Assembly (NCBI GenBank): GCA_034530875.2
Contig: JAVRCJ020000022.1
Span: 1 to 64,000 of the forward strand
Length of the DNA stretch: 64,000 bases
Direction: 5' to 3'
DNA from: Nostoc sp. DedSLP01
GTDB taxonomy: Bacteria; Cyanobacteriota; Cyanobacteriia; Cyanobacteriales; Nostocaceae
Positions 21,277 through 38,106 of this stretch are shown piece after piece. The position numbers and the translations under genes are program-made. Positions within the stretch are counted from its first letter, which is position 1; each line of letters opens with the position of its first letter. Under the pieces are notes generated by a model. That model was not told where the DNA came from. It worked only from the letters and a program-made list of their open reading frames with translations, and searched no databases.

Positions 21277-22002
21277 TTAGAGTGCGCCTGCACTGGGCAT
21301 TATTGTCAATTCATCGATAACTGCCTGTGGTGGTAACAAAACTGTGTGGAGAATTGTTTGGGCAACAGTTTCCGGAGTTAACATTTTGGAACGGTCTAAA
21401 TCGACATTGACTGTTTCTGTGTCCCAAATTTCGGTATTGACTGCGCCAGGATTTATAGTTGTAACACGAATGCCGTGGGTACGTTCTTCTTGTGCCAAGG
21501 TTTGAGAGAGAGCTAACAAACCGGCTTTGCTGACGCTATATGCCCCCCAATGGGGAAATGCTTGCTTGGCGGCAATGGAGGCGATGTTGATAATTGTGCC
21601 TCTGCCCCGATCGCGCATTAATGGCAATAATGCGGTAATACACTGAAATACACTAGTAAGATTCAGGTCAATTACTTTTTGCCAATCTGATAAAGGAGTT
21701 TCGCTTAAGCTACCTGTATATCCAATGCCGGCATTGTTGACCAAAATATCTATATCGCCAAAGTCAAGGGCGATCGCTTGGATCTTGTCTTTTACTTGCA
21801 AGACCTGCTCTAGATCGACAGCGTAAGCTTTTGCTGTCACTCCAGTATGCTCTAGAGCTTCTCTAAGGGCCTCCAACTTATCTAAAGAACGGCTGACTAA
21901 AGCAACATCTATGCCCGCCTTTGCAAAGGCTAAAGCAGTTGCTTTCCCAATTCCACTACTGGCCCCAGTAATCAGGGCGCGTCGTTTTTGCTCGGCACTC
22001 AT
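21277..22002 (-). CDS. SDR family oxidoreductase
   Basis: TGASSGIG, NNAG and YxxxK (YSVSK) motifs. Confidence 0.92.
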   Translation of the reverse strand: MSAEQKRRALITGASSGIGKATALAFAKAGIDVALVSRSLDKLEALREALEHTGVTAKAYAVDLEQVLQVKDKIQAIALDFGDIDILVNNAGIGYTGSLSETPLSDWQKVIDLNLTSVFQCITALLPLMRDRGRGTIINIASIAAKQAFPHWGAYSVSKAGLLALSQTLAQEERTHGIRVTTINPGAVNTEIWDTETVNVDLDRSKMLTPETVAQTILHTVLLPPQAVIDELTIMPSAGAL

Positions 22003-22360
22003 GGTGTCTCCCAATTTTTTGGCAATTCCCAAAGCCTATTACTACCCAATTATTCTCATCTTTGAGTTTCGATAGATTAAAGGAATCTAAAAATCCGATG
22101 ATTTTCATTGAGCAACTGCTATGATGCAGTGCAATAGCTGGTATATTGTGGGTTTTCCCAGTAAAGACTACTAATCGTCTCCTGAGAAGTAACCCCCTAC
22201 ACTCGGACTCAATTACTTGTAATACAAAATCTACTCAACCATATTAAGTAGATTCGCCAAATATGCAAATGCCTATGGCTAACCAGATTGTTAAAAATCT
22301 TTAAGCACCATAGGCGATTATAGCATTGGTATTTAGTTAATCGATCGCTATCTAGTGTTT

Positions 22361-23341
22361 TTAGTGGGCAACTTCTGTAAAAACACCAATTTTGCGGAAT
22401 TTTTCGTAGCGCAGTTGGCGACGTTCTGGAGCAGTTAAACGGTTGAGTTCCTCCAAATTTTCCAACAGCACTTGCTTGAGAGTGGTAGCCGCTTGCAAGG
22501 GGTCGGAATGAGCGCCACCGATAGGTTCAGGTAGTATGCGATCGATAATTCCCAAATTTTTCAGGTCGTGGGAAATGATTTTCAGAGCGACGGCAGCTTG
22601 CGGAGCTTTAGCAGCATCTTTCCACAAAATGGCGGCACAGGCTTCGGGGGTAGCAACGGTATAAACTGAGTGTTCAAACATCAATAGCCGATCGCCAACG
22701 CCGATACCGAGTGCGCCACCGGAACCGCCTTCACCAATGACTGTGCAGACAATTGGCACATCTAGGCAAAACATCTGCCGCAAGTTATAAGCGATCGCTT
22801 CTCCTTGACCTTGGTGTTCGGCTTCTACTCCAGACCAAGCTCCTGGCGTGTCGATAAAAGTTAAAATCGGCATCCCAAACTTATTGGCGTGTTCCATCAA
22901 GCGCAAAGCTTTGCGGTAGCCGCCAGGGTAAGGCATACCAAAGTTACGGGCGATATTGTCTTTGGTATCGCGGCCTTTTTGATGGCCTAACATGACCACG
23001 GGTTGTCCGCCCAGACGCCCGACACCACCCACTAAAGCTGGATCGTCACCACCACAGCGATCGCCATGCAACTCCATCCATTCATCGCTGATAGCCTGAA
23101 TGTAATCAAGAGTACTGGGACGGCGCGGATGACGAGCGACTTGCAATCGCTGGGATGGGGATAAACTGCTAAAAATTTCCTCACGCAGTTGCATAGCGCG
23201 TGTTTCTAGTTGACGAATTTGACCAGAAACATCGACGCCATTTTCTTCAGCAAGTTGCCGAATTTGATCGATTCGGGTTGCCAATTCAGCAAGAGGCTTT
23301 TCAAAATCCAACAGTAGCGGTTTACGTTCAGTAGTTGCCAT
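22361..23341 (-). CDS. accA: Acetyl-CoA carboxylase carboxyltransferase alpha
   Basis: [23 protein letters not shown] and [10 protein letters not shown] motifs. Confidence 0.97.
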
Positions 23342-23560
23342 CGTTAGGAGTTATCAGTTAAGAACTATCTATTTTTGTTGTCAGTTGTCATTAGTCTTTT
23401 GCCCAAACCAAATGACTAATGACTAAGCGCAAAGTCGAGCCACTGCGTTCCTGTCGCCTTGCGTCGGAAAGCAAGTGGCGTTGAGCGGAGGTTTCCTCCG
23501 ATGCCTGCGGCAACGCCAAGGGCGAACGGAACTTTGTAAGAGAAGACTAATGACTAATGA

Positions 23561-24580
23561 CTAAACCAACAAAGGTCTAAATCCATGTTTCACCGACACC
23601 CGACCAATCTGCTCCATTTTGTCTACGGTAATCTGATTTCGTCCCCACGAAAAGTTCGTGTACAACTTCTCAAATTCCAACAACATCGATTCGGCAAAAC
23701 AAGCAAACAACTGGCGTGCTGGCACATCCATATTGACGATTTTCATGATTTTCCAGTCAATATCTAGAGAATGCTCAACTATTCCACCATTTAACACGTA
23801 TACATCTGGATGCTGAATTTTTGTTGCTAAATTTTTAGGATAACCACCATCAATCAACAAACACGGTCGTTTCAAAACGGTAGGATCGATTTCTACGCCT
23901 TTGGGCATACTAGCAACCCAAACTACGATATCAGCTTCAGGCAGGGCTTCACTCAAACTCATGACTTTTCCTCGTCCGAGTTCGCCTTGTAATTCTTTAA
24001 GACGCTCTTGGTCGCGGGCTATCAGCAGAAGTTCTCGGACATCTGTTTTTGCATCTAGCCAGCGTGTTACTGCACTGCCAATATCGCCTGTTGCACCACA
24101 GACAGCGACTGTTGCTTTTGAAAGTTCGATTCCTAACTGTTTTGATGCTTCTTCTACCTGCCGACTAATGATATAGGCAGTATGGGTATTTCCTGTAGTG
24201 AAGCGTTCAAACTCTAGTTTGATGTTGCGGACTTGGCTAAACTGTTCCAACTTAAAATTTTCAAAAATAATCGAGGAAAATCCGCCTAAAGCCGTAATAT
24301 TAATGCCATGTTTCTGGGCGTGTGCCATTGCGTTAAGCACTTTGCGCGTTGCTGCTTTGATGCGACGGGTAGCTAGCATCTCTGGCAAAAAGCAAGATTC
24401 TACATAGCGTCCTTCAATTTTTTGTCCAGTGATGCTGGTAACAGTGATATTATCGACAATTTGTGGCGGAGCGCTACACCAAAAGTCTAGCCCTTGATCG
24501 GCATATTCTGGGTATCCCAATTCTTGAGCTACCGCTTGAGCGTGTTCTAAACTAGTCAGATGTCCAATTAGACCAAACAT
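23561..24580 (-). CDS. aar: Long-chain acyl-ACP reductase (alkane pathway)
   Basis: [15 protein letters not shown] start, [14 protein letters not shown]; lies between ado and accA. Confidence 0.96.
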
Positions 24581-24635
24581 GTAATGATTATTAGCCTTGT
24601 GCTGTCTTGAGCGCGTGGAATTTAATTAGAAGTTG

Positions 24636-24723
24636 GGAGTAGGAGACGCGATGAATCGCGTCTGTACAAGATTTAGGAGTAGGTAGAGACGCGATAAATC
24701 GCGTCTGTGCAAGATTTAGGAGT
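24636..24723. repeat. Two tandem copies of the short palindromic repeat AGACGCGATxxATCGCGTCT
   Basis: agacgcgatgaatcgcgtct and agacgcgataaatcgcgtct, each followed by gt(a/g)caagatttaggagt. Confidence 0.85.
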
Positions 24724-24768
24724 TTAATTCTAAATTCTTGGCTAAATTATTCTTCACTCCTAATTTTT

Positions 24769-25467
24769 TTAAGCTGCTTTGAGTCCGTGGGCTGACAAAC
24801 GCATAATCTCGAAAGTTTTGAAACCGATGTTACTTAATGCTTCACCGTACTGAATCATAAAGTCTTCTACTAAAGCTTCTTTTTCCATCGCTAAAGTTCT
24901 GGCATCATCTGCTACTTGGTTGAGCATTTTCCATACAAGTGGCAGGTTTTGGCGATTTGCTTCTTCTAATTCGGCTTTAGATTCGGCAAAGTTTTCTTTG
25001 AGCCAAACTTCTCCAAAATTAAGATGACTATATTCATCTTTGACTACGCTTTCAGTAATTTTACGGGCAAAGTCATCAGCGACGGGGATGTAAATGTTGT
25101 ATGCAGCGATCGCAAAACATTCGATAATCAAAGACTGAATCAATAAACAAGTGACGACTTTGCCTTGGGCAGCAGCTGTTTGGAAGTTTTGGTGCAGTCC
25201 AGAGAAAAATTCTTTGGCAAATTGCAAATCTGGTATAACTTCCAAATTGCGTCCACAAGCTTCAAATCCTTTCTTGTGGCGGCTTTCCATTTTCGAGAGA
25301 CGAATCAGTTCTTGTTCGGATTCTGGCAGCAGTTTGGCGAGTTGCAGGTAATTTTCATGGGCTTCTTGTTCCCCTTCAATCACGATCGCATTAATCCGGC
25401 TATAGGCGTCTTTGTATTTTTCGCTCCGGAAATCAATCTCTTTAAATTCGTCTGTCAGCTGCTGCAT
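24769..25467 (-). CDS. ado: Aldehyde-deformylating oxygenase
   Basis: [19 protein letters not shown]; diiron ExxH motifs (ESRH, EYSH); ECFAIAAYN. Confidence 0.97.
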
Positions 25468-25642
25468 GGTATGTTTTCTCCTGTAAAGAAAGAATTATTT
25501 GAAACCAGGAATCAATTTACCCTATGAACAGAGGGTAATAATCATTGTGGTTTAATTTAACTTAACAACTATGTATATAGATTAGCTTTTGCTGGGGTCG
25601 ATGCTCTAGTACCAGAGAAACAAATGCTTTGCCGCGCAACTC

Positions 25643-26470
25643 ATGCCTAAACTCAACTGGAATTTCAAATCTGGCGATTTAATCAGCCTAGTAATCTTAC
25701 TGCTAGGAGCTTTCATCGTTTTATTGCCACTGTTTGTAGTCTTTCTCACCTCCTTTGCACCGACAATTGCAAGTGTAGATGATTCGTCGAAAAATCATTG
25801 GTCTTTAGCTAATTATCAAGCTGCATGGCAGCAAGGTAAATTTTTGCTGGCATTTGCTAATTCTACCTTGGTAGCGATCGCTGTGACGGCGTTGCAGATT
25901 GTCACTTCTGCTTTGGCTGGTTACGCCCTCGCACGGCTAAAGTTTCGCGGACGTCAAGCACTGCTGTTGGTTGTCTTGGCAACTTTGGTGATTCCCTTTC
26001 AATTGTTGGTAATTCCGATTTTTTTGGTATTAAAGTGGGGACACCTGATAAATACTTATGGTGCGCTGATTTTACCCACTGCGGTTAATGGCTTTGGTAT
26101 TTTCTTATTGCGTCAATATTTCCAAACAATTCCCCTAGAGTTAGAAGAAGCCGCAGCCATAGATGGGGCGAACCGACTGCAAATTTTGTGGCGAGTGATG
26201 TTACCTTTAGCCCGTCCAGCTTTAGTAACACTATTTTTGTTTACCTTCATCGGCGAATGGAATGATTTGTTTAAGCCTTTGGTGTTTACCACAAGGCCGG
26301 AATTAAGGACGGTGCAGTTGGCTTTGGCTGAGTTTCAGGAACAATTTACGAATAATTGGCCTTTGATGATGGCAGCAGTAACAATAGCGACAGTTCCAGT
26401 CATGGTACTATTTTTGATTGGTCAACGTCAGTTTATTCGCGGTATTGCCACCACAGGAATTAAGAATTGA
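25643..26470 (+). CDS. Carbohydrate ABC transporter permease
   Basis: EAA motif (ELEEAAAIDGA), several TM helices, WNDL. Confidence 0.92.
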   Translation: MPKLNWNFKSGDLISLVILLLGAFIVLLPLFVVFLTSFAPTIASVDDSSKNHWSLANYQAAWQQGKFLLAFANSTLVAIAVTALQIVTSALAGYALARLKFRGRQALLLVVLATLVIPFQLLVIPIFLVLKWGHLINTYGALILPTAVNGFGIFLLRQYFQTIPLELEEAAAIDGANRLQILWRVMLPLARPALVTLFLFTFIGEWNDLFKPLVFTTRPELRTVQLALAEFQEQFTNNWPLMMAAVTIATVPVMVLFLIGQRQFIRGIATTGIKN

Positions 26471-26667
26471 TATGCATTGTTTCTAAATTTACATCCATCT
26501 GAAAAGCCTCGCTTCTATCCCACTTTTTTAGAAGGGTAAAGTTTCTGAATTTTCTTTTCTAGTAGGAAAGGTAGGTATGTTTAACCTTAAATTTTTGGTA
26601 TCTCTTGAAATTCTTATTCCTTACTCCTGTTAAGACGCTATTAATCGCGTTTCTAGTCATTCTCCAA

Positions 26668-26773
26668 CATCAATACTTAAATAGAAATCCGGAAGAAAAA
26701 TGTCAACTTTTATTACACATTGCGTAATTCTTACCAGGCAGGTTGAAGCAATAATTATCCATAGTCCGTAAGG
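26668..26773 (+). promoter_or_regulatory. Upstream region of module 1, homologous to 29843-29947; contains GTAATTCTTAC and TCCGGA
   Basis: Manual alignment of the two non-coding blocks (catcaat.ctt, gaaatcc, tgcgtaatt.ttac.ag, tgaag, attat). Confidence 0.6.
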
Positions 26774-26786
26774 AACCCACACACTC

Positions 26787-27113
26787 ATGAATTCACAATC
26801 AATCCTAGACCCTCAAACATTAGAGCAGTTACAAAACGAGATACAAGCAAAATTTGATGAAACCCTAAAAAACGCTGACTTCAACTCCCTACTTGAAAAG
26901 TACGGCATATTAGAAGATAGAGTTTTGAGAGTTTATTGGCAGTTTAATCTTGACCCCAATCAACTCAAATCTGATGATGCAGTTGAGGAACAGCAACCCA
27001 ATGCATTATTGGCAGCAACGGCAACATCTGTAAGACCAGAGATTGTATTAGTTAAAAAAGCATGGTGTATTCCTTGCCCTTCAACTGGCAGTTCTTTAGG
27101 CTGTAACTGCTAA
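26787..27113 (+). CDS. Small protein with conserved leader-like N-terminus and 4-Cys C-terminal tail (paralog 1)
   Basis: Paralog of 30081-30368 (TLEQLQNEI, LEKYG, IVL shared); SD-like taagga upstream; ends WCIPCPSTGSSLGCNC. Confidence 0.8.
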   Translation: MNSQSILDPQTLEQLQNEIQAKFDETLKNADFNSLLEKYGILEDRVLRVYWQFNLDPNQLKSDDAVEEQQPNALLAATATSVRPEIVLVKKAWCIPCPSTGSSLGCNC

Positions 27114-27192
27114 ATAATTTAAAAGTTTAGTTTTTGTTGTGTAAAAAGTTTATCCTAGTCAGTGACTCTGATGTTTTGAGTGCTAGTTTGCA

Positions 27193-29655
27193 ATGTCTCA
27201 AAATCGAAGCAGTTGGTACTGGGACTTAGGAATAGTGAGTACTCTAGCGATCGCTGGAGTACTCGCTTGCTCTGAGGGTTTTGCTTTAGCCCAAGTTCAA
27301 AAGGATGACAGCCTGGGAATTGAAAGTTCCACCGTCACGCCAAAGTTAATTGATGGTCAGCCTACAGACCAGATTGATGGCGGAGCAATTCGCAATCAAA
27401 ACTTGTTCCACAGCTTTGACAAGTTTTCTGTCTTTAAGGGCAGAACAGCGTATTTTAACAATTCGATAGATATTCTGAATATTATCGCTAGAGTTACGGG
27501 AAATTCTGTTTCTCAGATAGATGGCATTATCAAAACTAACGGTAGTGCCAATTTATTTTTGATTAATCCCAACGGCATTATTTTTGGAGCAAATGCTTCT
27601 TTAAACATTAATGGTTCATTTGTAGCTAGTACGGCAAGTAGTTTAAATTTTGCTGATGGGATAAAGTTTAGTGCTACAGATCCTCAATCTGCACCTTTGC
27701 TGACAGTCAGCGTTCCCATTGGCTTACAATTTGGCACAACTGCTGCACCCATCCGCAATCAATCCCAGGCAAGTCCAAACGGTGCAGTTAACTTCTTTGA
27801 ACAAGGTGTTGGTTTACAGGTGCAGCCAGGTAAAACCTTGGCATTTATAGGCGGTGATATAACACTAGAGGGCGGAAATTTAACTGCCCAAGCCGGAAAA
27901 ATTGAGTTAGGAAGCGTTGCTCCTAATAGTTTGGTCAGCCTGAGTTCAACAAATCAAGGTTGGACATTCGGATATGAAGGTGTTAAAAATTTTCAAAATA
28001 TCGAACTCACCGATTCAAATGATATTTTCTCTACACTAGATACGAGTGGTGAAAGTGGCGGCGACATCCATCTACAAGGCAAACATGTGCTAGCAGATGG
28101 GACTTCGCAGATTTTAGCTATTACCTTGGGAGCGCAACCAGGAGGAGATCTGGTCGTGAACGCTTCCGAATCTGTAGAACTGGGAGAAAATAGCTTCTTG
28201 TCTGTTGGAAGTTTCGATAACGGAAATTCTGGAAGTATAAATATTACTACGAGTAAGTTCATTGCCAAGGATGGAGCGCAAGTATCCATCTACAGTGTTG
28301 GCTCCGGTCTGCCAGGGGAACTAACCATCAACGCGTCAAATTCAGTAGAACTAATCGGTGGCTTCCCTATTCCTCCGTTTCGAGATGGTACTGATGTAAT
28401 AAGCAGTGGATTATTTAGTGAAACTTATGGCGTTCAAAATGCCGGGAGTATAACAATTAACACTCCAAAGTTACGCATTGAGGGAGGGGCAAGAATATCA
28501 ACAAGTTCTGAAGGCATCTATCTATTTCGCCAGAACCAATTTATACCAGTGACAGGGAACGGCGGCAATTTGACAGTGAACGCCTCCGATTCTGTAGAAC
28601 TAATTGGAACCTCACCAAATGGTTCTAAGGTCAGTGGGTTGTTTTCTAGAACTCAAGGGCCTGGAGATGGGGGAAACTTAACGGTAACGACAGGGCAATT
28701 GATTGTTAAAAATGGGGCTGCAATAACTGTCAACAGCCAAGCTCGCAAGAATGTAATTTATATTCAGGGAGATCCAAAAGATTTAGGAAAAGCAGGGGAT
28801 TTAAATATAACTGCTAACTCTATCCTCCTGGACAATAAAGGAAAACTCACATCTAATAGTGAATCTGGTAAAGGCGGAAATATTGGGTTACAGGTGCGGG
28901 ACATATTATTGATGCGTGGCAAAAGTCAAATATCCACTAATGCCGGAGGCGATAAAACTGGCGGTAATATTACCATCAATGCACCAAATGGCTTCATCGT
29001 CGCCCCTATTTTTGGCAATAGCGATATCACTGCTAACGCCTTCTCTGGGCCTGGTGGTAAGATTGCGATCGCCACTAAAAACATCTTCGGATTTATCCCC
29101 CGCACCCGTACAGACGTAGAAAAATTAGATTCACAAGAAATAAACCCGAATAACTTACCAACAAATGACATCACAGCTTTTTCTCAACAAAATCCTTCCT
29201 TAGGTGGCACAGTACAAATTAACTCACCTGATGTTGACCCCAGTAAAGGATTAGTGCAACTACCCGTAAATCTAGTTGATGCTTCTCAGGAAATTGTTGC
29301 TGGTTGTGGCTCTAATGCGAAAATAGCCAGAAGTTCATTTACTAACACTGGGCGTGGAGGAACAGCAGCCGATCCTACAGAACTATTGATGTCTGATGCA
29401 ATTGTAGGAGATTGGATTCCACTAAATTTAGAAAGTGAGAATCGTGCTGAGGATAGCAACAAGAGAGTAGTTGTTAAGCAGCAGCGAAACACAGAATTAT
29501 CAGAAAAAGTGAATTCTGTCAATGAACCTACCCAAATTGTGGAAGCCCAAGGATGGGTAATGGATGCGAATGGTAACGTGGTTCTAGTTGCTCAAGTACC
29601 GACTGCAATACCCCATAGTTCCTTGCTGATGGCTGCATCTTGCGCTGCTAATTAA
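27193..29655 (+). CDS. Filamentous haemagglutinin N-terminal (TPS) domain exoprotein 1
   Basis: Signal peptide, NLFHSF, NIIARVTG and NLFLINPNGIIFG; Gly-rich beta-helix repeats; C-terminal DITA/TGRGG/IVEAQGW region. Confidence 0.92.
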   Translation: MSQNRSSWYWDLGIVSTLAIAGVLACSEGFALAQVQKDDSLGIESSTVTPKLIDGQPTDQIDGGAIRNQNLFHSFDKFSVFKGRTAYFNNSIDILNIIARVTGNSVSQIDGIIKTNGSANLFLINPNGIIFGANASLNINGSFVASTASSLNFADGIKFSATDPQSAPLLTVSVPIGLQFGTTAAPIRNQSQASPNGAVNFFEQGVGLQVQPGKTLAFIGGDITLEGGNLTAQAGKIELGSVAPNSLVSLSSTNQGWTFGYEGVKNFQNIELTDSNDIFSTLDTSGESGGDIHLQGKHVLADGTSQILAITLGAQPGGDLVVNASESVELGENSFLSVGSFDNGNSGSINITTSKFIAKDGAQVSIYSVGSGLPGELTINASNSVELIGGFPIPPFRDGTDVISSGLFSETYGVQNAGSITINTPKLRIEGGARISTSSEGIYLFRQNQFIPVTGNGGNLTVNASDSVELIGTSPNGSKVSGLFSRTQGPGDGGNLTVTTGQLIVKNGAAITVNSQARKNVIYIQGDPKDLGKAGDLNITANSILLDNKGKLTSNSESGKGGNIGLQVRDILLMRGKSQISTNAGGDKTGGNITINAPNGFIVAPIFGNSDITANAFSGPGGKIAIATKNIFGFIPRTRTDVEKLDSQEINPNNLPTNDITAFSQQNPSLGGTVQINSPDVDPSKGLVQLPVNLVDASQEIVAGCGSNAKIARSSFTNTGRGGTAADPTELLMSDAIVGDWIPLNLESENRAEDSNKRVVVKQQRNTELSEKVNSVNEPTQIVEAQGWVMDANGNVVLVAQVPTAIPHSSLLMAASCAAN

Positions 29656-29842
29656 AAATCGATTTTGTTGACTAACTTTTATTGAATCGCAACGTTAGCT
29701 AGCTGTAGCGCGTTGTAGATGTTGGTTGCTTGTTGGTTATGAGGGTGAGAGGAGCGATTCGCCCTTTTTACTTAACTCAGGTGTGGTGCGATCGCTGATT
29801 TGCTATGACTTTGTTGCATCAACAACAGTTGGCAACCAGATT

Positions 29843-29947
29843 CATCAATGCTTTAAGGAAATCCAATAAAAATATATAAAGTTTTGTTAAGCAGTGCGTA
29901 ATTATTACTAGCGAAGCTGAAGTCTTGATTATGAGAGTTCGCAAGAG
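29843..29947 (+). promoter_or_regulatory. Upstream region of module 2 with perfect palindrome GTAATTATTAC (29898-29908)
   Basis: Homologous to 26668-26773. Confidence 0.6.
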
Positions 29948-30080
29948 CTTTAGAAAGCTAATGCGATCGTTTTACTTTCAACTATGTATTATTAATTGCT
30001 TGGTTGCCCAAGTCATCTTAAATTAGTACACCACAAAATAAGTTCATACAGTTATATAATCTGCAAGGGAAGTAAAATTT

Positions 30081-30368
30081 ATGGAATCTCCAACTTCACA
30101 GCAAGTATCTCTAGATTCTCTAACTTTAGAGCAGTTACAAAATGAGATTCGGCAGGAAATCAGCGAGATAGTGCAGAGTTCAAGACTAAGTAAGGTACTA
30201 GAAAAGTATGGTCTTTCAAAAAAGAATGCTCTGAAAATTCAATGTAGTGTTAATCTAACTCAAGCTGAATTGAATGATGCAAAATGTTCATTTCTCGCTC
30301 ACGGCAAACAAATCGTATTAGCAACATGTTGCCTTGAAGGTGAAATTTGCGTCAAATGTAAGCCATAA
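30081..30368 (+). CDS. Small protein with conserved leader-like N-terminus and 4-Cys C-terminal tail (paralog 2)
   Basis: LDSLTLEQLQNEI...LEKYG...IVLATCCLEGEICVKCKP; SD-like aaggga upstream. Confidence 0.8.
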   Translation: MESPTSQQVSLDSLTLEQLQNEIRQEISEIVQSSRLSKVLEKYGLSKKNALKIQCSVNLTQAELNDAKCSFLAHGKQIVLATCCLEGEICVKCKP

Positions 30369-30729
30369 TATTTAACAATAATTATAGGTTGCATTTTGCT
30401 GTTGTTATATGCAACCTACCAAAATTTATGTTTTTTATTTTAGCTATATATCTTCAATTATATGGCACTTGTATTTTGATTTTTGCAAAAAGCTCAGTAC
30501 ACTTGAAAAATGCTCGTTATCTACTGGCTTACGGCAGCAAACAACTTCAAAAATCAATCAAAGCGAATTACTATAAATCCTATTCTCTTACTGACAGATT
30601 TTTATAAAACTACATTTTCATTAGGGTGATACAACCTTCATTGGCTAGTGAAGTCACATTTTTGAATGTAGATGAAGTTTGACCATTATTCATTAACTGG
30701 TAGTAGTTTTGAGTCCTGTAATACCCTGT

Positions 30730-33039
30730 ATGACTAACCTTTGGATCTGGTTTAAAAGTTTGGGAGTTGCAATAGCTGGTGTAATAGCTTTCTCTGGAAA
30801 CTTTGTTAGCGCTCAAATTACTCCAGACAATACTTTATCTACCCCTTCTAAAGTTATAGAACAAGGCAATACCACAATTATTGAAGATGGAACTCCAGTA
30901 GGAAGCTATTTGTTCCACAGTTTTAAAGACTTTTCTGTAGACGCCCAGACTACTGCTGAGTTTAGAAATGCTGAAAGTGTTGAGAATATTATTAGCCGAG
31001 TAACGGGTAAGTATGCTTCTAAAATTGAAGGTATTATTACAGCTAAACACAAGGCCAATCTATTTCTAATTAATCCCAATGGGATTATTTTTGGTCCCAA
31101 TGCTTCTTTAAACATCGGTGGTTCATTTATTGCGAGTACAGCTAGTAGTCTGAACTTTGCTGATAATACTCAGTTTAGTGCTACAAATCCTCAAAGTGTA
31201 CCTCTGCTGACAGTCAGCGCTCCCATTGGTTTACAATTTGGAGCAACTGCTAAACCCATCCTTAACCAATCATCCTACCAAGTACAATCTACAACCGTTG
31301 GTCTACAAGTACAGCCTGGCAAAACCTTAGCACTGGTAGGCGGTAATATAAATCTGGAGGGTGGAAGTTTAACAGCACAATCAGGAAGAGTTGAGCTAGG
31401 AAGCGTTGCTAGCAATAGTTTAGTCAGTCTGAACTTAACAGACCAAGCTTTGGTTTTGGGATATAAAGATGTCCCTGACTTCCAGAACATTCGACTAATT
31501 CAGAGGCAAGCTAATGATGGTTCTAAAATTCCATCTATTGTAAGTACTAGTGGTAATGGTGGCGGTAATATTCAGGTGCAGGGCAATACAGTAGAACTAG
31601 TTGGCTATTCTGTGCGTTTGGTAAGCCAGACTAGGGGTAGTATACCTGGCAAAGATATAACAATTAATGCTAGAAAATTAATTCTTCGAGATAGTGCCCA
31701 AGTGGGTACTTCTACTATAGGCGAGGGTGCGGCAGGAAATTCGATCGTCAACGCTCTGGAGTCTGTGGAGCTGGTTGGTAGTTTTATTAGGCCAGATAAT
31801 CGAACTATTGTCAGTACATTGTTTAGTACGACCGGCGGTGACGGGAAGGCTGGGGATATAACAATTAAAACAGGGAGATTACTTATTCAAGATGGAGCTC
31901 AGATATCAGCAGATTCTAGTGGAACCTTGAACAACTCTCAAATAATAGCAGCTACAGGTAAAGGAGGTAATATAACTGTGAATGCCTCAGAGTCCATAGA
32001 GCTAATTGGAAATGCAGGGCCAGATAACTCTAGTATAATATCTGCTACAACTTTCGGTCTCGGCGAGTCTGGAAAAGTGACAATTCATACAGAAAAATTG
32101 ACTGTCCGAGATAAAGCTGAAGTAAATGTGAGTGTTTTGGGAGATGGACGCAACCAAGGAAGAACATCGGGTGAAATTAATGTAACTGCTCGCTCTATCC
32201 TGCTTGACGGAGGAAAACTCACATCTAATAGTGAATCAGGTGCAGGCGGAAATATTTCGCTACAGGTGCAGGACTTATTACTGATGCGCGGCCAAAGTAA
32301 AATAACCACTAACGCTGAGGGTAATAGAGATGGTGGGGGTAACATCACCATCACTGCACCAAATGGCTTCATCGTCGCCCCTGTTTTTGGAAATAGCGAT
32401 ATTACCGCCAATGCTAACTTTGGCTCTGGTGGCAAAATCGAAATCACCACTAAAAAGATCTTTGGATTTGTAACACGCACCCGTGAAGATGTAGATAGAC
32501 TTGACCCAACAGGCCAAATCAATCCAAATAACCTGCCAACAAACGACATCACGGCGTTTTCTCAGCAAAACCCTTTACCTTCATTCAGTGGCACAGTACA
32601 AATCAATTCACCAGATGTTGACCCCAGCAAAGGATTAGTGCAATTGCCGATAAATCTGGTTGATGCTTCACAGCAAATAGTTGCCAATTGTGGTTCTAGT
32701 GCAAAAATGGCCAGCAGTTCGTTCAATAACATTGGGCGTGGAGGAACAGCACCCGATCCTACACAGCCATTGACGGCTGATGCAGTGTTGGCAGATTGGA
32801 TAATACTGAATCCAGAAAGTGAGAATCCTGCTGAGGGTATGAAGAATAGAGTGGTTGTTCAGAAGCAACGAAACACACACATACCACAGAAATTGAATTA
32901 TATCAATGAATCTGCTGAAATTGTCGAAGCCCAAGGATGGATAACGGATGCCGATGGTAACGTGGTTCTGGTTGCTCAGATACCTACTACAACACCCTAC
33001 AATTCATCTCTCGTGGCTGCATCTTGCGCTGCTCATTAG
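30730..33039 (+). CDS. Filamentous haemagglutinin N-terminal (TPS) domain exoprotein 2
   Basis: Signal peptide, LFHSF, NIISRVTG and NLFLINPNGIIFG; clear paralog of 27193-29655; start taken at ATG 30730 (the ORF track opens at 30709). Confidence 0.92.
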   Translation: MTNLWIWFKSLGVAIAGVIAFSGNFVSAQITPDNTLSTPSKVIEQGNTTIIEDGTPVGSYLFHSFKDFSVDAQTTAEFRNAESVENIISRVTGKYASKIEGIITAKHKANLFLINPNGIIFGPNASLNIGGSFIASTASSLNFADNTQFSATNPQSVPLLTVSAPIGLQFGATAKPILNQSSYQVQSTTVGLQVQPGKTLALVGGNINLEGGSLTAQSGRVELGSVASNSLVSLNLTDQALVLGYKDVPDFQNIRLIQRQANDGSKIPSIVSTSGNGGGNIQVQGNTVELVGYSVRLVSQTRGSIPGKDITINARKLILRDSAQVGTSTIGEGAAGNSIVNALESVELVGSFIRPDNRTIVSTLFSTTGGDGKAGDITIKTGRLLIQDGAQISADSSGTLNNSQIIAATGKGGNITVNASESIELIGNAGPDNSSIISATTFGLGESGKVTIHTEKLTVRDKAEVNVSVLGDGRNQGRTSGEINVTARSILLDGGKLTSNSESGAGGNISLQVQDLLLMRGQSKITTNAEGNRDGGGNITITAPNGFIVAPVFGNSDITANANFGSGGKIEITTKKIFGFVTRTREDVDRLDPTGQINPNNLPTNDITAFSQQNPLPSFSGTVQINSPDVDPSKGLVQLPINLVDASQQIVANCGSSAKMASSSFNNIGRGGTAPDPTQPLTADAVLADWIILNPESENPAEGMKNRVVVQKQRNTHIPQKLNYINESAEIVEAQGWITDADGNVVLVAQIPTTTPYNSSLVAASCAAH

Positions 33040-33084
33040 AATTTGAGAGATAGCACATAACAGGCAAGGAGCAAAGAAGAATAA

Positions 33085-33168
33085 TAGACATCTCCAGAAA
33101 TTAAATATGCGTTATCCAGTAGAGACGTAGCATTGCTACGTCTCTACATTCATTTTTGGAGATGTCTA
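33085..33168. repeat. Miniature inverted-repeat element with central GTAGAGACGTAGCATTGCTACGTCTCTAC hairpin
   Basis: Ends tagacatctcca / tggagatgtcta; a related copy lies at 56281-56374. Confidence 0.75.
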
Positions 33169-33191
33169 ATTAATAACCAATGCCCTATGCC

Positions 33192-34223
33192 CTAATTCGT
33201 CTCCTGAATCTGCAAACGTACTGTGTGTTCTGTAGTGCCACTCAGTTGTAATTCCATGATTTCGCCGCCTAGAGGCTCTAAACAACTGAGGAGCGATCGC
33301 AAGTTGGGCGTACTTGCGCCAGTATCGACATACAATCTATCTGCCAAATTGCCGATACGTTTCCAAGTCATGTACAGTTTGGCGATAGTTTGTTCGATTT
33401 GCGATGCTTGATTGACTAAATCGGCAGCAATGCTCAAACAGCCGACTCTTTGCGCTTCTTCTAAAGCTGTTTCGATATCAACGTTTTCCTGTGCTAATGC
33501 CTGGACTTGAGCCGCACCTTTGAGATATTTTGCTAAGTTACGCGCTTCTGTAGTTACTTGTTTTAAGGTATCTACATCCGGATTGGCAGCTATTTCTTTT
33601 TGGATAAACTTTTGATGGGATTCCGGCAGTTTTTCCATTTCCTTTACCAGAGGAGCAATGTAGCGCGGCGGAAGGGTGTTATCTGCGGCTTTTGCCCTGA
33701 CTGGTTCGGGTAGTAATTCTGAGGACATCGCTGTCCATTCATCGGTGAGTTGTCGGACTTCGCGCCTGGTGATGCGATCGCCTTTTTGGGCGGCTTCACT
33801 CACCATTTGTTGTACTTCTGGTACTGCTTTGGAAGTTTCAACAAATGCCCGTTTGCTAAAGTTATTCACTGCCTCAGGGTCTAGTTTGCCTTCTTCTAAA
33901 AGCGTATCAGCACTATTAGCCAGTTGAATCCAGGCATAAGCTTGACTTTTGCTAATTTCTCGCTCTTTTAGCCATCTGAGAAAACCCGTACCGCGTCCGT
34001 CACCACCAATTTTCTCTCTGTCGCGGATCGCCCGTAAAATTCGCCCCCGCCAGATTTCAGTTTGCAAATCGAAGCGATCGCATACTTGCCAAGCTATTTC
34101 CAGCTGTTGTTGAAAATCTGAGTCTAGAATCTGTTCGTCTTCAGGATCGGGCAGTTCAAAGGTGAGATCGGCTGGTTGTTGCAAAGCAGCAGCAAGGTCG
34201 TTGATGGAGTCGGTATCTTGCAC
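33192..34223 (-). CDS. Conserved cyanobacterial hypothetical protein
   Basis: Long helical ORF (FDLQTEIWRGRILRA...NFSKRAFVET); likely GTG start at 34223 (the ORF track opens at 34271). Confidence 0.75.
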   Translation of the reverse strand: MQDTDSINDLAAALQQPADLTFELPDPEDEQILDSDFQQQLEIAWQVCDRFDLQTEIWRGRILRAIRDREKIGGDGRGTGFLRWLKEREISKSQAYAWIQLANSADTLLEEGKLDPEAVNNFSKRAFVETSKAVPEVQQMVSEAAQKGDRITRREVRQLTDEWTAMSSELLPEPVRAKAADNTLPPRYIAPLVKEMEKLPESHQKFIQKEIAANPDVDTLKQVTTEARNLAKYLKGAAQVQALAQENVDIETALEEAQRVGCLSIAADLVNQASQIEQTIAKLYMTWKRIGNLADRLYVDTGASTPNLRSLLSCLEPLGGEIMELQLSGTTEHTVRLQIQETN

Positions 34224-34387
34224 AATTGATGAGTAACGAGTAGTATATGCGACCGGCTTATTATGCCACAATCTGTGAATTCTAACTTAGGGGGTAAGAC
34301 GGTATTTTCAGTTACCACCGAACTAGAATAAAGGAGTAAAGCACCTTAGTAAGATTTTTAATTATTCATAACAATAAAAATAAAACG

Positions 34388-35374
34388 ATGAACCAGGTAG
34401 ACTACCTCCGCATTAGTTTAATAGATCGTTGCAACTTCCGTTGTCAATACTGTATGCCAGAGGGAGTAGAACTGGACTATATTCTCAAGCAACAGCTATT
34501 GACTGATGAAGAACTGCTCGCTTTAATCCGAGAAGTATTTATTCCTCTAGGTTTTAGCCGCTTCCGTTTGACTGGCGGCGAACCATTATTACGTCCCGGT
34601 GTGGTGGATTTGGTTGGGGCGATCGCTTCTTTTCCCCAAACTCAAGATTTGTCAATGACCACTAACGGGTTTTTGCTGGCCCCAATGGCGCAAAACCTCT
34701 ACAACGCAGGTCTGCGGCGCATTAATATTAGTCTGGATTCTCTCGACTCCGACACTTTCGACCAAATTATTGGCAATCGCGGTCGTTCTCGTTGGCAACA
34801 AGTCTGGGACGGAATTCAAGTCGCTTACCAAGTTGGATTTGACCCACTGAAGCTGAATGTGGTGGTCATTCCTGGCGTTAACGATGGCGAAGTTCTAGAT
34901 TTAGCTGCCCTGACAATTAATAAACAGTGGCATATCAGATTTATTGAATTCATGCCCATTGGCAATTTCGATTTATTTGGCGATCGCGGTTGGGTTTCTT
35001 CAGCGGATTTACGCCAACGCATCCGCGATCGCTGGGGCTTGACAGAATCCCAAGTTCGTGGTGCTGGCCCTGCCGATGTGTTTCAAATTCCTGGAGCCAA
35101 GGGAACGCTAGGATTTATTAGTCAGATGTCGGAATGCTTTTGCGATCGTTGTAACCGGATGCGCCTGAGTGCTGATGGTTGGCTGCGTCCGTGTTTATTG
35201 AATGAAACTGGTCAACTCGACCTCAAGACTGCTTTGCGTTCTGGCACTAGTACTGCTCAACTACGAGAGCAAGTGAGGCGTTTACTTGCAATCAAGCCAG
35301 AAATCAACTTTAAAGCCCGCGATCCTGGTACTCAGGGTATATACACGCGCACGATGTCGCAAATTGGCGGCTAG
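34388..35374 (+). CDS. moaA: GTP 3',8-cyclase MoaA
   Basis: CNFRCQYC radical SAM motif, TGGEP, CDRCNR...C, C-terminal MSQIGG. Confidence 0.97.
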
Positions 35375-35485
35375 TCAACCCCTTTGGGAATTCAAAATTC
35401 AAAGTTAATTGGCTCAAGGTCTGTCAAATTCCCGTTAATTTATTGGCTCTGTATCCTTATTGAAAATCTCCAATTTGCTGCCAAG

Positions 35486-35983
35486 CTACAAAATACTTGG
35501 CCAGGATAGAGTCAGTAACATAATCAAATTACTTGACCAAAACAAAAGCAACAGCCACAAGGCACTATTAATTATCCTGAAGTTCGCTGCCTCGAAAACA
35601 GCAGTTTTAAGGAATTGCTGTCCATACCAAAGTTGCCAAACTCGAAATGCAGTGTAAACTGTACCAATAATTACCACTAAACTTGGTAACCAAACTCTAC
35701 TGACTATTTGTTCGGTGAGAATTTGGATAATAATAACTAGCAAGTAGAAGCCAAAGATTTGGCGAATTTCAGGATACTTAAACCAAATTACAAATGTAAT
35801 TGTAGGAAGAATAAGTCCAATAGCGATCGCTAACAGTATCCAAATTTTAATAAATCTCTGTCCAGCGTCGCTATAGTGAATTATTGGACTAATTGGTAAT
35901 ATTCCAATTGAAGTCAGCCAACCAACAAATACTACTACTAAAGTTGCCAGTACTATAAAGATAAATGTCTTTCTCCAAGTCAT
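35486..35983 (-). CDS. Hypothetical membrane protein
   Basis: About five hydrophobic segments; YTAFRVWQLW. Confidence 0.7.
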   Translation of the reverse strand: MTWRKTFIFIVLATLVVVFVGWLTSIGILPISPIIHYSDAGQRFIKIWILLAIAIGLILPTITFVIWFKYPEIRQIFGFYLLVIIIQILTEQIVSRVWLPSLVVIIGTVYTAFRVWQLWYGQQFLKTAVFEAANFRIINSALWLLLLFWSSNLIMLLTLSWPSIL

Positions 35984-36049
35984 TAATTGTTTGCTCCGCT
36001 AACTAAGTGAGCTTTAAATATCAACGAACGTTGGTGAGAATTTGACTTT

Positions 36050-36165
36050 ATACCATTTCGATATGAAGACGCATAGAAATAACCCCACCGCCTGCGGCAT
36101 CTGCCCTTGGTAAGGGGAGGTTGGGAGGGGTGAAAATAATGTGCAGCTTCACAAAGAATTGGTAT
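36050..36165. repeat. Miniature inverted-repeat element
   Basis: Imperfect terminal IR: ataccatttc..tgaagacgca and tgcagcttca..gaattggtat. Confidence 0.55.
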
Positions 36166-36524
36166 TAGACAAAAGAGGTAACAGCTTTTATTAAATCTCT
36201 ATCTACTACAATACGGTTCAGATAAGCCTTTTTCTCTTCCCCTACCTCCCCTGCTTGCCCTGCTCAAGAACAGCTTGCCTAAACAGATAAATTTCCTTAA
36301 CACCAAGCGTATTGCTGTCTACTAATGGTGTCATCCATCCATTGCCGCAAGATATTCAAGTGCAATTGAGTCAGCAGGCATAAAAAATAAAAGAAATAAT
36401 TTGAGCGATCGCTTTCAGGCAGTAGAAATTATTCAAATCAATTACAAAATATGAGTGGAGGAAAACAAACCTCCACTCACACTTTAGAACTTGTCCTTTG
36501 CAAATAACTAAAGACAAATGACTA

Positions 36525-37133
36525 TTACGCTTGTCGTGAGTAGTATTCCACCACAAGTAGTTCGTTAACTTGCAGTGCCACCCATTCCCGTTCAATAACA
36601 CCGTTGACTTTGCCAATCAATTTATTTTTGTCAAACTCCAGATGGCTGGGGAGGTTGGCTAAACCGGGATATTGCAAATTATTTTCTACCAACTTCCGAG
36701 ATTGTTCGCGGTCTCTGACAGCGATCGTTTCACCAGGACGGCATTGATAGCTGGCAATATTAACTACGCGTCCGTTAACAGTGATGTGACCGTGATTCAC
36801 TAGTTGGCGGGCTGCTGGGATCGTTGGAGCTAGACCCAAGCGAAAAACGGTGTTATCCAGACGCATTTCTAGCAATTGCAGCAGAACTTGTCCGGTAGAA
36901 CCAGTAACGCGTCTGGCTTTACGCACGTAACGTAGCAGTTGCTTTTCTGTTAAACCGTAGTTGAAGCGGAGCTTTTGCTTTTCTTCTAGACGGATAGCAT
37001 ACTCAGAGCGCTTTTTGCGGTTCTGACCGTGTTGACCTGGTGGATAAGCGCGTCTAGCGCTTTTACGAGTTAATCCTGGGAGGTCGCCCAAGCGACGTAT
37101 AATTCTGAGGCGTGGCCCTCTGTATCGGGACAT
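36525..37133 (-). CDS. rpsD: 30S ribosomal protein S4
   Basis: [22 protein letters not shown] and VVEYYSR motifs. Confidence 0.99.
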
Positions 37134-37479
37134 GAGTTTCCTTAATCTAATCCTGTTTAAACTTTACCTAAACATTCTATATTGACATCAGAATCCAGAA
37201 TTCAGAACTCAGAATTCAGAAGTCACAAGTCACAAATCAGCAATAAAACCAGCTTTTTGCTTGGCTATCAGACTGAGCTTGTGTACTTAACTTGCCTTGA
37301 AATCTGCTCTCTTTTTCAAAGAGTCATCATATTAACACAATTTATTATAATAACACAGTTTACAGTATACTAACCCAGTTTAGTCCCCGATTCCAAATCC
37401 TAAATTCTGAATTCTGACTCCTGAATTCTGAGTTCTGAATTCTGATATTTGAGTTAGCATTACTTTGGGTGTTTGGAGA

Positions 37480-38106
37480 ATGGCAATGTTAAAAAGCAAA
37501 AAAGCGGTTAGCAAAAGTCAGGTTTTAACAGTACCAGTTTTGGCAATAGCTGGATTATTGACAGCGATTTTACCTGATATGGCGATCGCTGCCTCCTACA
37601 GGAATGATTACAGTATTTGTGCAGAAGGTCTTTTGAAGGTTGGCATCACACCAGAAGCAGCATCACAAGGTTGTGCCCAGGCACTGCGTCCCAGAGATCT
37701 TGGTGCTTGTGTCGTTAAAATTGACAAGGGAACTGAAATTACAGCCGCAGATGCCCTGTCTTACTGTGGGAGAGCTAGGCGTCCTGAGGAATTAGCTACC
37801 TGTGTAGTCGGTGTCAGTTCATTGACCAAGGAAGCAGTTAATCCAGCAGTTTTAAATTACTGCGGCCGCAGTTTATTGCCCGTGCGCTTTGGTCAGTGTG
37901 TGGTTGGATTACTTGGTAAAATCGAACTTCCTCCCACTCAGGCTTTGGACACTTGTATCGATGGCAGTGACAGCAGTGTTATCGGGGTTTCATCTTCACC
38001 TACATCACCGAATCTATTCCCTGGAAGTTCAAGTCCTAGTACGGAGACTGCACCATTCCCAACGCAACCCGTTGCGCCAACGCAACCTCAGCCCGGTACT
38101 AATTAA
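37480..38106 (+). CDS. Secreted Cys-repeat hypothetical protein
   Basis: Signal peptide, four ~31-aa repeats each with two Cys, Pro/Ser/Thr-rich tail. Confidence 0.8.
   Translation: MAMLKSKKAVSKSQVLTVPVLAIAGLLTAILPDMAIAASYRNDYSICAEGLLKVGITPEAASQGCAQALRPRDLGACVVKIDKGTEITAADALSYCGRARRPEELATCVVGVSSLTKEAVNPAVLNYCGRSLLPVRFGQCVVGLLGKIELPPTQALDTCIDGSDSSVIGVSSSPTSPNLFPGSSSPSTETAPFPTQPVAPTQPQPGTN

Follow-up and report, generated by a model that had tools for sequence, protein, structure and literature searches.

Is a small protein with a cysteine-rich tail, encoded directly upstream of a large secreted exoprotein, the partner of that exoprotein, and if so, in what capacity? The question is raised by a stretch of 64,000 nucleotides from Nostoc sp. 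DedSLP01 (GenBank assembly GCA_034530875.2, contig JAVRCJ020000022.1, positions 1 to 64,000; hereafter the window), which is contig C22 of our analysis of a near-complete 8.6-Mb genome (99.8% complete). Here, two tandem units on the + strand each comprise an upstream box, a gene for a small protein (S1, 108 aa; S2, 95 aa), a gene for a filamentous haemagglutinin (FHA)-like exoprotein with a two-partner secretion (TPS) domain (F1, 820 aa; F2, 776 aa) and a hairpin. A first-pass annotation of this DNA had described a box, an open reading frame (ORF) of about 100 codons and an FHA-N protein, twice in tandem, and had proposed a cognate-pair system. Every part was found where it had been placed, and the cognate pair is supported by gene adjacency in both directions and by co-variation of the S tail with the central helix of F, but not in the immunity role known from contact-dependent growth inhibition (CDI). 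We read the S tail as an exported ligand of its cognate, surface-exposed F protein, which would signal through CHAT and CHASE2 proteins, and we estimate the probability of this whole chain at about 55%; a functional match between S tail and central F helix is, judging from their sequences, very probable. Below, L, G and C numbers denote loci, genomes and contigs, G000 being the genome of the window.

The small protein and the exoprotein

S1 (26787..27113, + strand) consists of an acidic leader, a relaxed linker, a strand containing IVL and a Cys-rich tail, and it has no signal peptide. S2 (30081..30368, +) has a leader like that of S1 and a different Cys tail (residues 76-95, 30306..30365, +). 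The two proteins are akin, with 37% identity over 59 residues (E 2e-12), while their tails cannot be aligned, and each tail contains the four cysteines previously reported, S2 having two further cysteines upstream of its tail. Neither S1 and S2 nor their homologs match a Pfam or NCBIfam family; close relatives of S1 are annotated as hypothetical proteins of Nostoc, and a search of the ESM Atlas with S1 returned only unnamed cyanobacterial clusters. In Nostoc punctiforme PCC 73102, the public records ACC80384.1 and ACC80385.1 represent such an S and F. A profile built from 19 sequences detects S in 148 of 301 Nostocaceae genomes and in none of 263 genomes of other families. A wider profile of 120 sequences adds 8 of 23 genomes of one non-Nostocaceae family and 1 of 31 of another, and since these nine genomes had given no match with the first profile, absences of S reflect profile sensitivity. 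The family, whose representative library comprises 168 clusters at 50% identity, constitutes an unannotated collection of natural Cys-rich peptides. Its layout of a conserved leader and a variable Cys-rich C-terminal tail is that of precursors of ribosomally synthesized and post-translationally modified peptides (RiPPs). The number of tail cysteines is mostly even (among 62 sequences, four in 32, six in 14 and two in 6), and many tails are acidic or neutral. Nowhere does the S alignment show 7-10 consecutive conserved columns.

Among 12 S1-type genes, the ratio of nonsynonymous to synonymous substitution rates (dN/dS) amounts to 0.37 for the leader, 0.76 for the linker, where deletions of 15 residues are tolerated, and 0.26 for the tail (in S1 residues 85-108, 27039..27110, +). 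By this measure, the S1 tail is under purifying selection among orthologs. The system had been called diversifying, and the tails do differ between the two units; they are not freely variable, however, as the ratio of 0.26 and the small number of tail classes that cross genera both indicate. The predicted model of S1, with helices at residues 9-29 and 33-38, a strand at 45-50, a loose linker, the IVL strand and the tail, is weak (predicted local distance difference test score, pLDDT, 64; predicted template modelling score, pTM, 0.42), and a fold search with it was uninformative, returning single-helix matches alone (best Z 4.0 over 40 residues). Tailless forms also occur: at L003 (G101:C44:16600-16900) an S1 ortholog stops before the tail and an unrelated gene takes the place of F, and S matches in G300 and G302 are similarly shortened.

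F1 (27193..29655, +) begins with signal-like residues 1-33, followed by the TPS domain, a predicted β-helix and a disordered tail; F2 starts at 30730 (ATG) or 30709 (TTG, giving 776 aa), ends at 33039 (+) and has a shorter central region and the same two-Cys tail. Both match the Pfam TPS family PF05860 at E<1e-60 and, also above cut-off, TIGR01901. They are 55% identical overall, and the earlier description of similar TPS and C-terminal parts around a divergent center agrees with the identities by region: 61% at residues 34-260, 37% at 261-400, 43% at 401-533, 78% at 534-690 and 65% at 691-820. F proteins are 760-880 aa long (about 80 kDa), and their N terminus carries a hydrophobic Sec-type signal in 59 of 62 and a twin-arginine motif in none of the 62. 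In the AlphaFold2 model of F1 (pLDDT 79, pTM 0.78), the β-helix is continuous to about residue 680, with pLDDT mostly above 85 over residues 40-680, and the nearest structures found by Foldseek are EtpA, HxuA and HMW1, with E 2.7e-7 to the HxuA-hemopexin complex. With a signal and a TPS domain, a β-helical body and candidate TpsB partners, namely two ShlB/POTRA genes elsewhere in the genome and ShlB genes adjacent to the pair in relatives, F1 and F2 are TpsA (type Vb) exoproteins.

The C-terminal tail (in F1 residues 682-820, 29236..29652, +) is common to the 16 FHA paralogs of this Nostoc genome. In all 62 F proteins, the last 135 residues contain exactly two cysteines, at invariant positions (C705 and C817 in F1), and a GRGG motif is present in 56; an ESM Atlas search with the F1 tail gave only unnamed cyanobacterial clusters. 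According to the passages of PMC5422565 on these proteins, a disulfide loop at the C terminus keeps HxuA and HMW1 fixed in their transporter, the protein ligand of HxuA is bound by the loop-bearing half beyond the TPS domain, and CdrA is set free when a periplasmic protease cuts its tail. By analogy, the F tail is likely a disulfide-closed periplasmic anchor that would hold F at the cell surface.

Pairing of the genes and co-variation of tail and helix

In the forward direction, 60 Nostocaceae S loci from 28 genera were chosen from the S match lists, as part of more than 200 matches and with the 1.5-kb flank of some already inspected. A TPS gene on the same strand lies within 3 kb 3′ of S in 58 of them, where chance would give about 0.3%. 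These pairs occur in many different gene neighborhoods, and the order S-then-F is also found in nine of nine loci outside Nostocaceae, in two other families. In the reverse direction, a search with a profile built from S-linked F proteins yielded 86 matches of at least 892 bits, followed by a gap to 776, with at most six candidates scored per genome; clade F is thus defined by the same profile that found it. Among 29 clade F genes whose upstream DNA had not been seen, four lie at contig ends, and a small Cys-tailed gene stands directly 5′ of 20 of the 25 that could be assessed (14 recognized by profile and 6 by eye), as against none of 11 lower-scoring, non-clade FHA genes taken as controls. 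The first-pass annotation had held that S homologs lying mostly away from FHA genes would speak against a pair; both counts point the other way. S without an adjacent F was seen at L065 (G046), L259 (G154) and L069 (G094); in G046, a clade F gene at another site (L210) is frameshifted, and at L065 and L069 the opposite strand carries a TPR-CHAT gene less than 4 kb from S.

If the pairing is functional, variation in the tail should be mirrored in F, and this was examined with and without tail classes. In a label-free comparison of 62 aligned S-F pairs, tail distance correlates best with F residues 401-530 (r 0.44) and not with 691-820 (r 0.07, p 0.15), and residues 401-530 show a correlation with leader distance as well (partial r 0.31). 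In a dereplicated set of 36 pairs, tail distance correlates with F windows at 274-533 (r 0.17-0.32), compared with r of at most 0.17 for windows in the TPS part and −0.13 to 0.02 beyond residue 554, while leader distance correlates at sites along the whole of F. Tail classes were set by Cys pattern before the F alignment and trees were viewed (7 pairs in class A, 6 in B, 10 in C and 13 unclassified); S1 is of class A (PCP...GC), and the S2 tail was left out of the classes. They are few and common to several genera. On a tree of F residues 274-533, tail class changes only 3 times, versus 10.9 in shuffles (p 0.001), whereas it changes 10 times on the TPS tree (p 0.38), 8 times on that of F 560-820 (p 0.04) and 9 times on that of the S leader (p 0.14). 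Genus, assessed with 19 rows from six genera, changes 11 times on the central tree (p 0.49), 6 times on the TPS tree (p 0.001), 5 times on the tree of the C-terminal part (p 0.001) and 8 times on the leader tree (p 0.004).

Moreover, columns diagnostic of tail class make up 18% of F residues 274-533, 0% of 34-260 and 1.5% of 560-820. F partners of class A tails carry an extra insertion of 26 residues at about 305-330, and a central region of at least 250 residues is found in 20 of 21 class A pairs, 0 of 10 class B pairs and 2 of 13 class C pairs. Accordingly named as the candidate specificity region, residues 274-533 of F1 (28012..28791, +) include the class A insertion and represent the long form, with F2 representing the short one. 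Because the tail is separated from the central region by DNA that encodes the TPS domain, such co-variation is not what mere linkage would produce; selection for a match does produce it. Thus, in these alignments and trees, tail class co-varies with the central β-helix of F and not with genus; absence of co-variation, another result that had been named as speaking against a cognate pair, was not what the partner trees gave.

Probable export of the tail, signaling neighbors and the upstream box

Although S1 has no signal peptide, S tails recur behind export signals in relatives. Signals of the FHA-type Sec class precede S tails at L066 (six copies), L096, L104, L110, L114, L120, L005, L006, L169, L185, L186, L205 and L209, at least 13 loci in all; another Sec-type signal, which we take to resemble that of PstS, does so at L072 and L073, and twin-arginine signals at L196 and L211 (one genome, with 38% contamination) and at P0144 and P0156. 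Some of these genes form tandem arrays beside a single F gene, with six signal-bearing copies at L066 (G129), four at L169 (G093), one of them without a tail, and three at L205 (G002); L209 (G035) likewise has an array. In the arrays of these four loci, the cysteines are fixed and the loops vary, and G093 contains 11 S profile matches. Five of the six array tails at L066 differ in class from the cognate S. The signal parts of two arrays give dN/dS of 0.15 and 0.19, values by which the acquired signal peptides are under purifying selection, while at L066 the captured TPS fragment is relaxed (0.57) and the tails reach 0.76 with their cysteines fixed. In the shortest signal-bearing forms (L005, L006 and L205), all that separates the signal from the tail is a brief linker and the last strand. 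The leader is a candidate export handle of signal-less S, as its helices give way to a Sec signal in several relatives, and we infer that the S tail acts outside the cytoplasm. Of the roles offered by the first-pass annotation for S, cargo, ligand, chaperone or immunity partner, that of ligand agrees best with the data, given the repeated occurrence of S tails downstream of export signals; immunity of the CDI type does not fit because S lies upstream and the C terminus of F is conserved and not a toxin.

What could lie downstream of such a ligand is suggested by the genes that accompany FHA genes. In this genome, which has 16 full or near-full FHA paralogs, eight TPR-CHAT genes, at least six CHASE2 genes and the two ShlB/POTRA genes, the other FHA genes sit with genes for exported TPR-CHAT proteins, DUF928, CHASE2, DUF1822, extracytoplasmic function (ECF)-type sigma factors and ShlB. 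The His and Cys dyad motifs are kept in 12 of the 13 exported CHAT proteins checked. Outside Nostocaceae, S-F heads an operon with ShlB and TPR-CHAT genes in four genomes of one genus, is followed by ShlB at L250 (a contig end) and by TPR-CHAT at L253, and at L251 is followed by TPR-CHAT and faces DUF928, CHAT-CHASE2 and DUF1822 genes; L256 has a divergent CHASE2 gene beside S-F, and L252 has none of these neighbors. Within Nostocaceae, a divergent ShlB gene is found at L090, L093, L099 and L204, with TPR-CHAT behind it at the first three, DUF928 or CHAT-CHASE2 at L198, L201, L206 and L211, and DUF1822 with an ECF-type sigma gene at L190 and L199. Genes downstream of F change with the neighborhood. 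In the window, there is no ShlB or CHAT gene within 22000-38000 (gene map 16000-45000), as had been noted, nor is the set of caspase-CHASE2, ECF and DUF1822 genes at this locus; that set occurs elsewhere in the genome and beside S-F in some relatives. The suggested link of cyanobacterial FHA-N genes to ShlB and CHAT thus holds for relatives, where they share an operon with S-F, and not for the vicinity of this locus.

Other small genes also adjoin FHA genes in this genome. At L124 (G000:C40:9000-28500), a mersacidin-type lanthipeptide precursor and LanM are encoded directly 5′ of a 1530-aa FHA protein, followed by TPR-CHAT, a sigma-like gene, DUF1822 and CHAT-CHASE2, while DUF928 and another FHA gene lie opposite; the lanthipeptide may fill the role of S there. 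At L126 (G000:C62:9200-15300) and L128 (C85:4000-9300), two or three small proteins encoded in tandem, whose leaders are double-glycine-like and of which one matches β/γ-crystallin, stand beside FHA together with a C39-peptidase ATP-binding cassette (ABC) transporter (and HlyD at L126), and appear to represent a third kind of exported small protein adjoining FHA. At L127:10714-11304 (G000:C62), a shortened 'HetZ-related protein 2' gene (197 aa, match below cut-off) lies between two FHA genes in a cluster that also contains ShlB, ECF sigma, DUF1822 and CHAT-CHASE2.

The boxes of the two units (26668..26748 and 29843..29922, both +) are 73% identical over 81 nt (E 3e-8), with core motifs AACTT-N13-CGTAAT at 26705-26728 and AAGTT-N13-CGTAAT at 29879-29902. 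The 34-nt motif AA(G/C)TT-N13-CGTAAT lies 76-340 nt upstream of 44 of 74 S genes (with a matrix trained on the same set). When the regions upstream of S1 and S2 were left out of the matrix, the top three sites in this genome were those of S2 (33.5 bits), S1 (31.6) and contig C7 (31.4), controls reaching at most 22.1. The third box (G000:C7:212953, −; locus L162/L132) precedes a 70-aa acidic, Cys-free ORF without similarity to S and then a 972-aa FHA gene whose tail is much like that of F2; the ORF is possibly a different peptide in the S slot. Only these three sites exceed the controls, so a genome-wide regulon in this genome is unsupported. In other genomes, 42 flanks of box sites were fetched and all but two read: six are small-ORF-FHA cassettes outside the training set, three sites precede a response regulator, followed in two by a TPR protein with CHAT confirmed in one, and one site precedes ShlB-CHAT-DUF1822-CHASE2. 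A further six of these sites precede a caspase-domain (PF00656) gene of one family, the box lying 100-400 nt 5′ of it in six genomes of three genera (L137-L140, L152, L155 and L167). These flanks are suggestive of a regulon shared by S-F and CHAT/caspase genes. The box is likely a promoter or operator, and we take its motif to resemble ECF-type promoters. Three other motifs were rejected as the box: the NtcA-type GTA-N8-TAC is no commoner upstream of S than in shuffles (9 versus 10.2), the palindrome GTAA-N3-TTAC occurs in only 13 of 74 S upstream regions, and of the HetZ (DIF1) promoter TCCGGA-N16-17-TGNA, box 1 has TCCGGA (26688-26693) with no TGNA at 16-17 nt and box 2 lacks TCCGGA. The terminator-like hairpins 3′ of F1 (29741..29766, +) and F2 (33119..33147, +) come from a hairpin search that gave 6 in the region versus 5.2 in shuffles, so it is their position alone that is suggestive.

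The proposed chain, its rivals and its relatives

Taken as a whole, the chain would run as follows. The S tail would be exported, folded by disulfides and bound by the central helix of its own F partner. F would stand on the cell surface, secreted through one or other of this genome's two ShlB proteins, whose genes lie at other sites, and held in the ShlB pore by its disulfide loop. Ligand binding would alter the access of TPR-CHAT to the periplasmic tail of F, where GRGG is a possible Arg site, or its access to DUF928, and the signal would pass inward through the exported, caspase-like TPR-CHAT protease to CHASE2 receptors. The CHAT domain of HetF cleaves after Arg, as the parts of PMC9457339 concerned with it report. 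CHASE2 output would in turn activate a regulator of the upstream box, either a sigma factor or a response regulator, and this would close a feedback loop. A more specific version, in which the system is a polymorphic cell-to-cell peptide code, with a TPS β-helix as receptor, disulfide-rich type-specific signals and jamming variants, a tethered-tail relay to periplasmic caspase and CHASE2 proteins, and sigma feedback, is tentative and, in our judgment, rather doubtful. Kin recognition, also proposed earlier, may be a role of the pair.

Several observations weigh against an exported, signaling ligand. None of the 62 aligned S proteins has a hydrophobic signal (one row being the S half of a signal-bearing chimera), GG or GA precedes the tail in only 3 of 62, no exporter or peptidase is conserved beside S in the 60 loci, and deletion between tandem units could mechanically create the FHA-type signal chimeras. 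As to pairing, 5 of 25 clade F genes have no upstream small gene (one of them having transposase-like genes in the slot, by eye, and one being frameshifted), and S and clade F are both present yet apart in G046, G094 and G154. The correlations are modest, 13 of 36 pairs are unclassified, the classes were drawn by the analyst from the tails, and a single class C pair (L064) is nested within the class A clade. Furthermore, in most Nostocaceae loci the genes around S-F are housekeeping genes, and CHAT and CHASE2 genes are located elsewhere. Raw counts show no excess of the box pattern, at 55 matches in 151 genomes versus 53 for the reversed control, so that many matches are due to chance, and the ShlB, TPR-CHAT and response-regulator genes of this genome have no box above the control range.

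Among the alternatives, the one that survives best would make S a cognate accessory of its own F within the envelope of the producer, as a plug, a chaperone or a redox- or metal-dependent regulator on the central helix, rather than a cell-to-cell signal. It accounts for the same co-variation and suits the one-to-one units, each with its own box and terminator; in the low-confidence model, the strand of a small folded S leader could pair with the IVL strand, and Cys-rich tails could bind metal in the cytoplasm. It is nonetheless unlikely: arrays of three to six exported paralogs per single F, with five of six tails non-cognate at L066, exceed what a chaperone would need, S persists away from any F in the three genomes just named, and F, being of the Sec type with no twin-arginine motif, could not take a folded partner out of the cytoplasm.

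A second alternative is that S tails are antagonistic, bacteriocin- or defensin-like peptides, which F either displays to neighbors or traps to protect the producer. A leader with a hypervariable Cys-rich tail, expansion of arrays in which cysteines are conserved and loops change (dN/dS 0.76 in the L066 tails), tail types that cut across genera and the patchy presence of S in 148 of 301 Nostocaceae genomes would all be expected of such peptides, but neither an exporter nor an immunity gene of its own regularly accompanies S, the conserved neighbors, where present, are signaling genes, and tails are conserved within ortholog groups (dN/dS 0.26) and often acidic or neutral. We consider this improbable.

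A third possibility, that S and F are co-regulated neighbors that do not touch and that their match records old cassette lineages with flanks homogenized by gene conversion, is a good deal more doubtful. The 78% identity of F1 and F2 at residues 534-690, compared with 37-43% in the center, fits flank conversion within genomes, the label-free correlations are modest and leader distance, too, tracks F 401-530; yet the leader, although contiguous with the tail, follows genus, while the region that the tail follows begins over 0.8 kb further downstream, on the far side of TPS DNA which itself goes with genus. Keeping two separate islands matched through repeated conversion requires selection for the match, and class A accompanies the 26-residue F insertion in 20 of 21 pairs by length. 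Least probable of all, and very unlikely, is that S is the precursor of a RiPP modified in trans whose mature product F binds, for despite the leader-core layout, purifying selection on both parts and the LanM and C39-peptidase ABC transporters beside other FHA genes of this genome, no RiPP precursor family was matched by 62 S (NCBIfam) or 120 S (Pfam) beyond single weak unrelated matches, no maturase is conserved beside S in 60 loci, nearby radical-SAM-motif genes belonging to the local neighborhoods, and the leader helices, which a maturase would require, are lost in variants exported by Sec.

Comparison with known systems sets the proposed exported ligand of F apart in several ways. In CDI systems, the immunity gene lies downstream of the CdiA gene and its product is cytoplasmic. 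CDI (CdiA/CdiB/CdiI) resembles S-F in having a TPS exoprotein with a small polymorphic cognate partner and a kin/non-kin logic, but CdiA is described as 180-650 kDa with a variable C-terminal toxin (PMC5422565). F, by contrast, has about 80 kDa, varies in the middle of the protein and has a conserved tail that follows genus, and S is encoded upstream and often exported. With F at 760-880 aa, its tail conserved and S upstream in 58 of 60 loci, a CDI toxin-immunity system was rejected; the S-F pair is neither a CDI system nor a recognizable RiPP cluster. In staphylococcal AgrD/AgrC, a precursor with a variable core forms specificity groups with its receptor and acts by autoinduction, and such peptide systems rely on a protein dedicated to processing or export, with either a membrane kinase or a receptor in the cytoplasm. 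S-F is similar in its variable core, in specificity groups that pair tail and F, here a statistical pairing, and in possible autoinduction; it differs in that the partner is an outer-membrane-secreted β-helix and that no dedicated exporter was found beside S.

HxuA/HxuB and HMW1 of Haemophilus influenzae resemble F in their TPS domain and right-handed β-helix of similar size, and the ligand site of HxuA beyond the TPS domain and its C-terminal disulfide anchor, as given in the relevant passages of PMC5422565, resemble features predicted for F. HxuA, however, binds a host protein for haem and works with a TonB-dependent receptor, whereas the candidate ligand of F is encoded next door and varies along with the F helix, and CHAT, DUF928 and CHASE2 proteins appear as partners. 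CdrA/CdrB with LapG of Pseudomonas aeruginosa offers a TpsA whose periplasmic tail is cut by a protease (PMC5422565, same passages), comparable to the exported TPR-CHAT genes that follow FHA and ShlB here, but CdrA is an adhesin under inside-out control by cyclic di-GMP and without a cognate peptide, and cleavage of F by CHAT would be the step to be supposed here. EACC2-caspase-CHASE2 systems (Kaur et al. 2021, PMC8195603) are similar in that the CHAT-CHASE2, DUF1822 and ECF-type sigma genes which flank S-F at L190, L198, L199, L201 and L251 agree with the gene neighborhood catalogued there; the main text of that paper contains neither haemagglutinin nor DUF928 (0 matches each), and its passages on these systems name no stimulus. 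For the downstream step supposed here, HetF-PatU3-HetZ of Anabaena PCC 7120 is a precedent, in which a CHAT protease cuts after Arg and frees a sigma factor from its likely anti-sigma factor (PMC9457339, PMC13342950); these are other proteins with the promoter TCCGGA-N16-17-TGNA, and the passages concerned mention no TPS protein or Cys peptide.

No description of the S-F pair was found in the papers searched, and a term search of bioRxiv 10.64898/2026.08.14.744816 gave no match. The part of PMC5422565 that surveys TpsA proteins credits them with adhesion, cytolysis and iron acquisition and with acting as CDI toxins; for a TpsA, being matched through its central helix to its own polymorphic peptide would, if true, be a new role. 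The many cyanobacterial FHA, TPR-CHAT, DUF928 and CHASE2 genes have no known input, and the cassette provides a small, synthesizable candidate ligand together with a mapped specificity region, which makes the pathway directly testable. If true, it would also be a candidate strain-recognition system for Nostoc-type cyanobacteria, relevant to their colonies and symbioses.

The two units of the window are flanked by a sugar-type ABC permease gene (PF00528) and by a conserved 359-aa gene (33192-34271, −) that, at the cut-offs applied, belongs to no Pfam or NCBIfam family. The latter is present in 23 of 61 mapped regions, mostly just 3′ of F, and is probably a usual chromosomal neighbor of the cassette. 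On the other side, the genes at 21277-25467 (−) are, as we read them from their translations, presumably those for aldehyde-deformylating oxygenase, acyl-ACP reductase, accA and a short-chain dehydrogenase, and this ordinary alkane locus adjoins the cassette in many Nostoc genomes.

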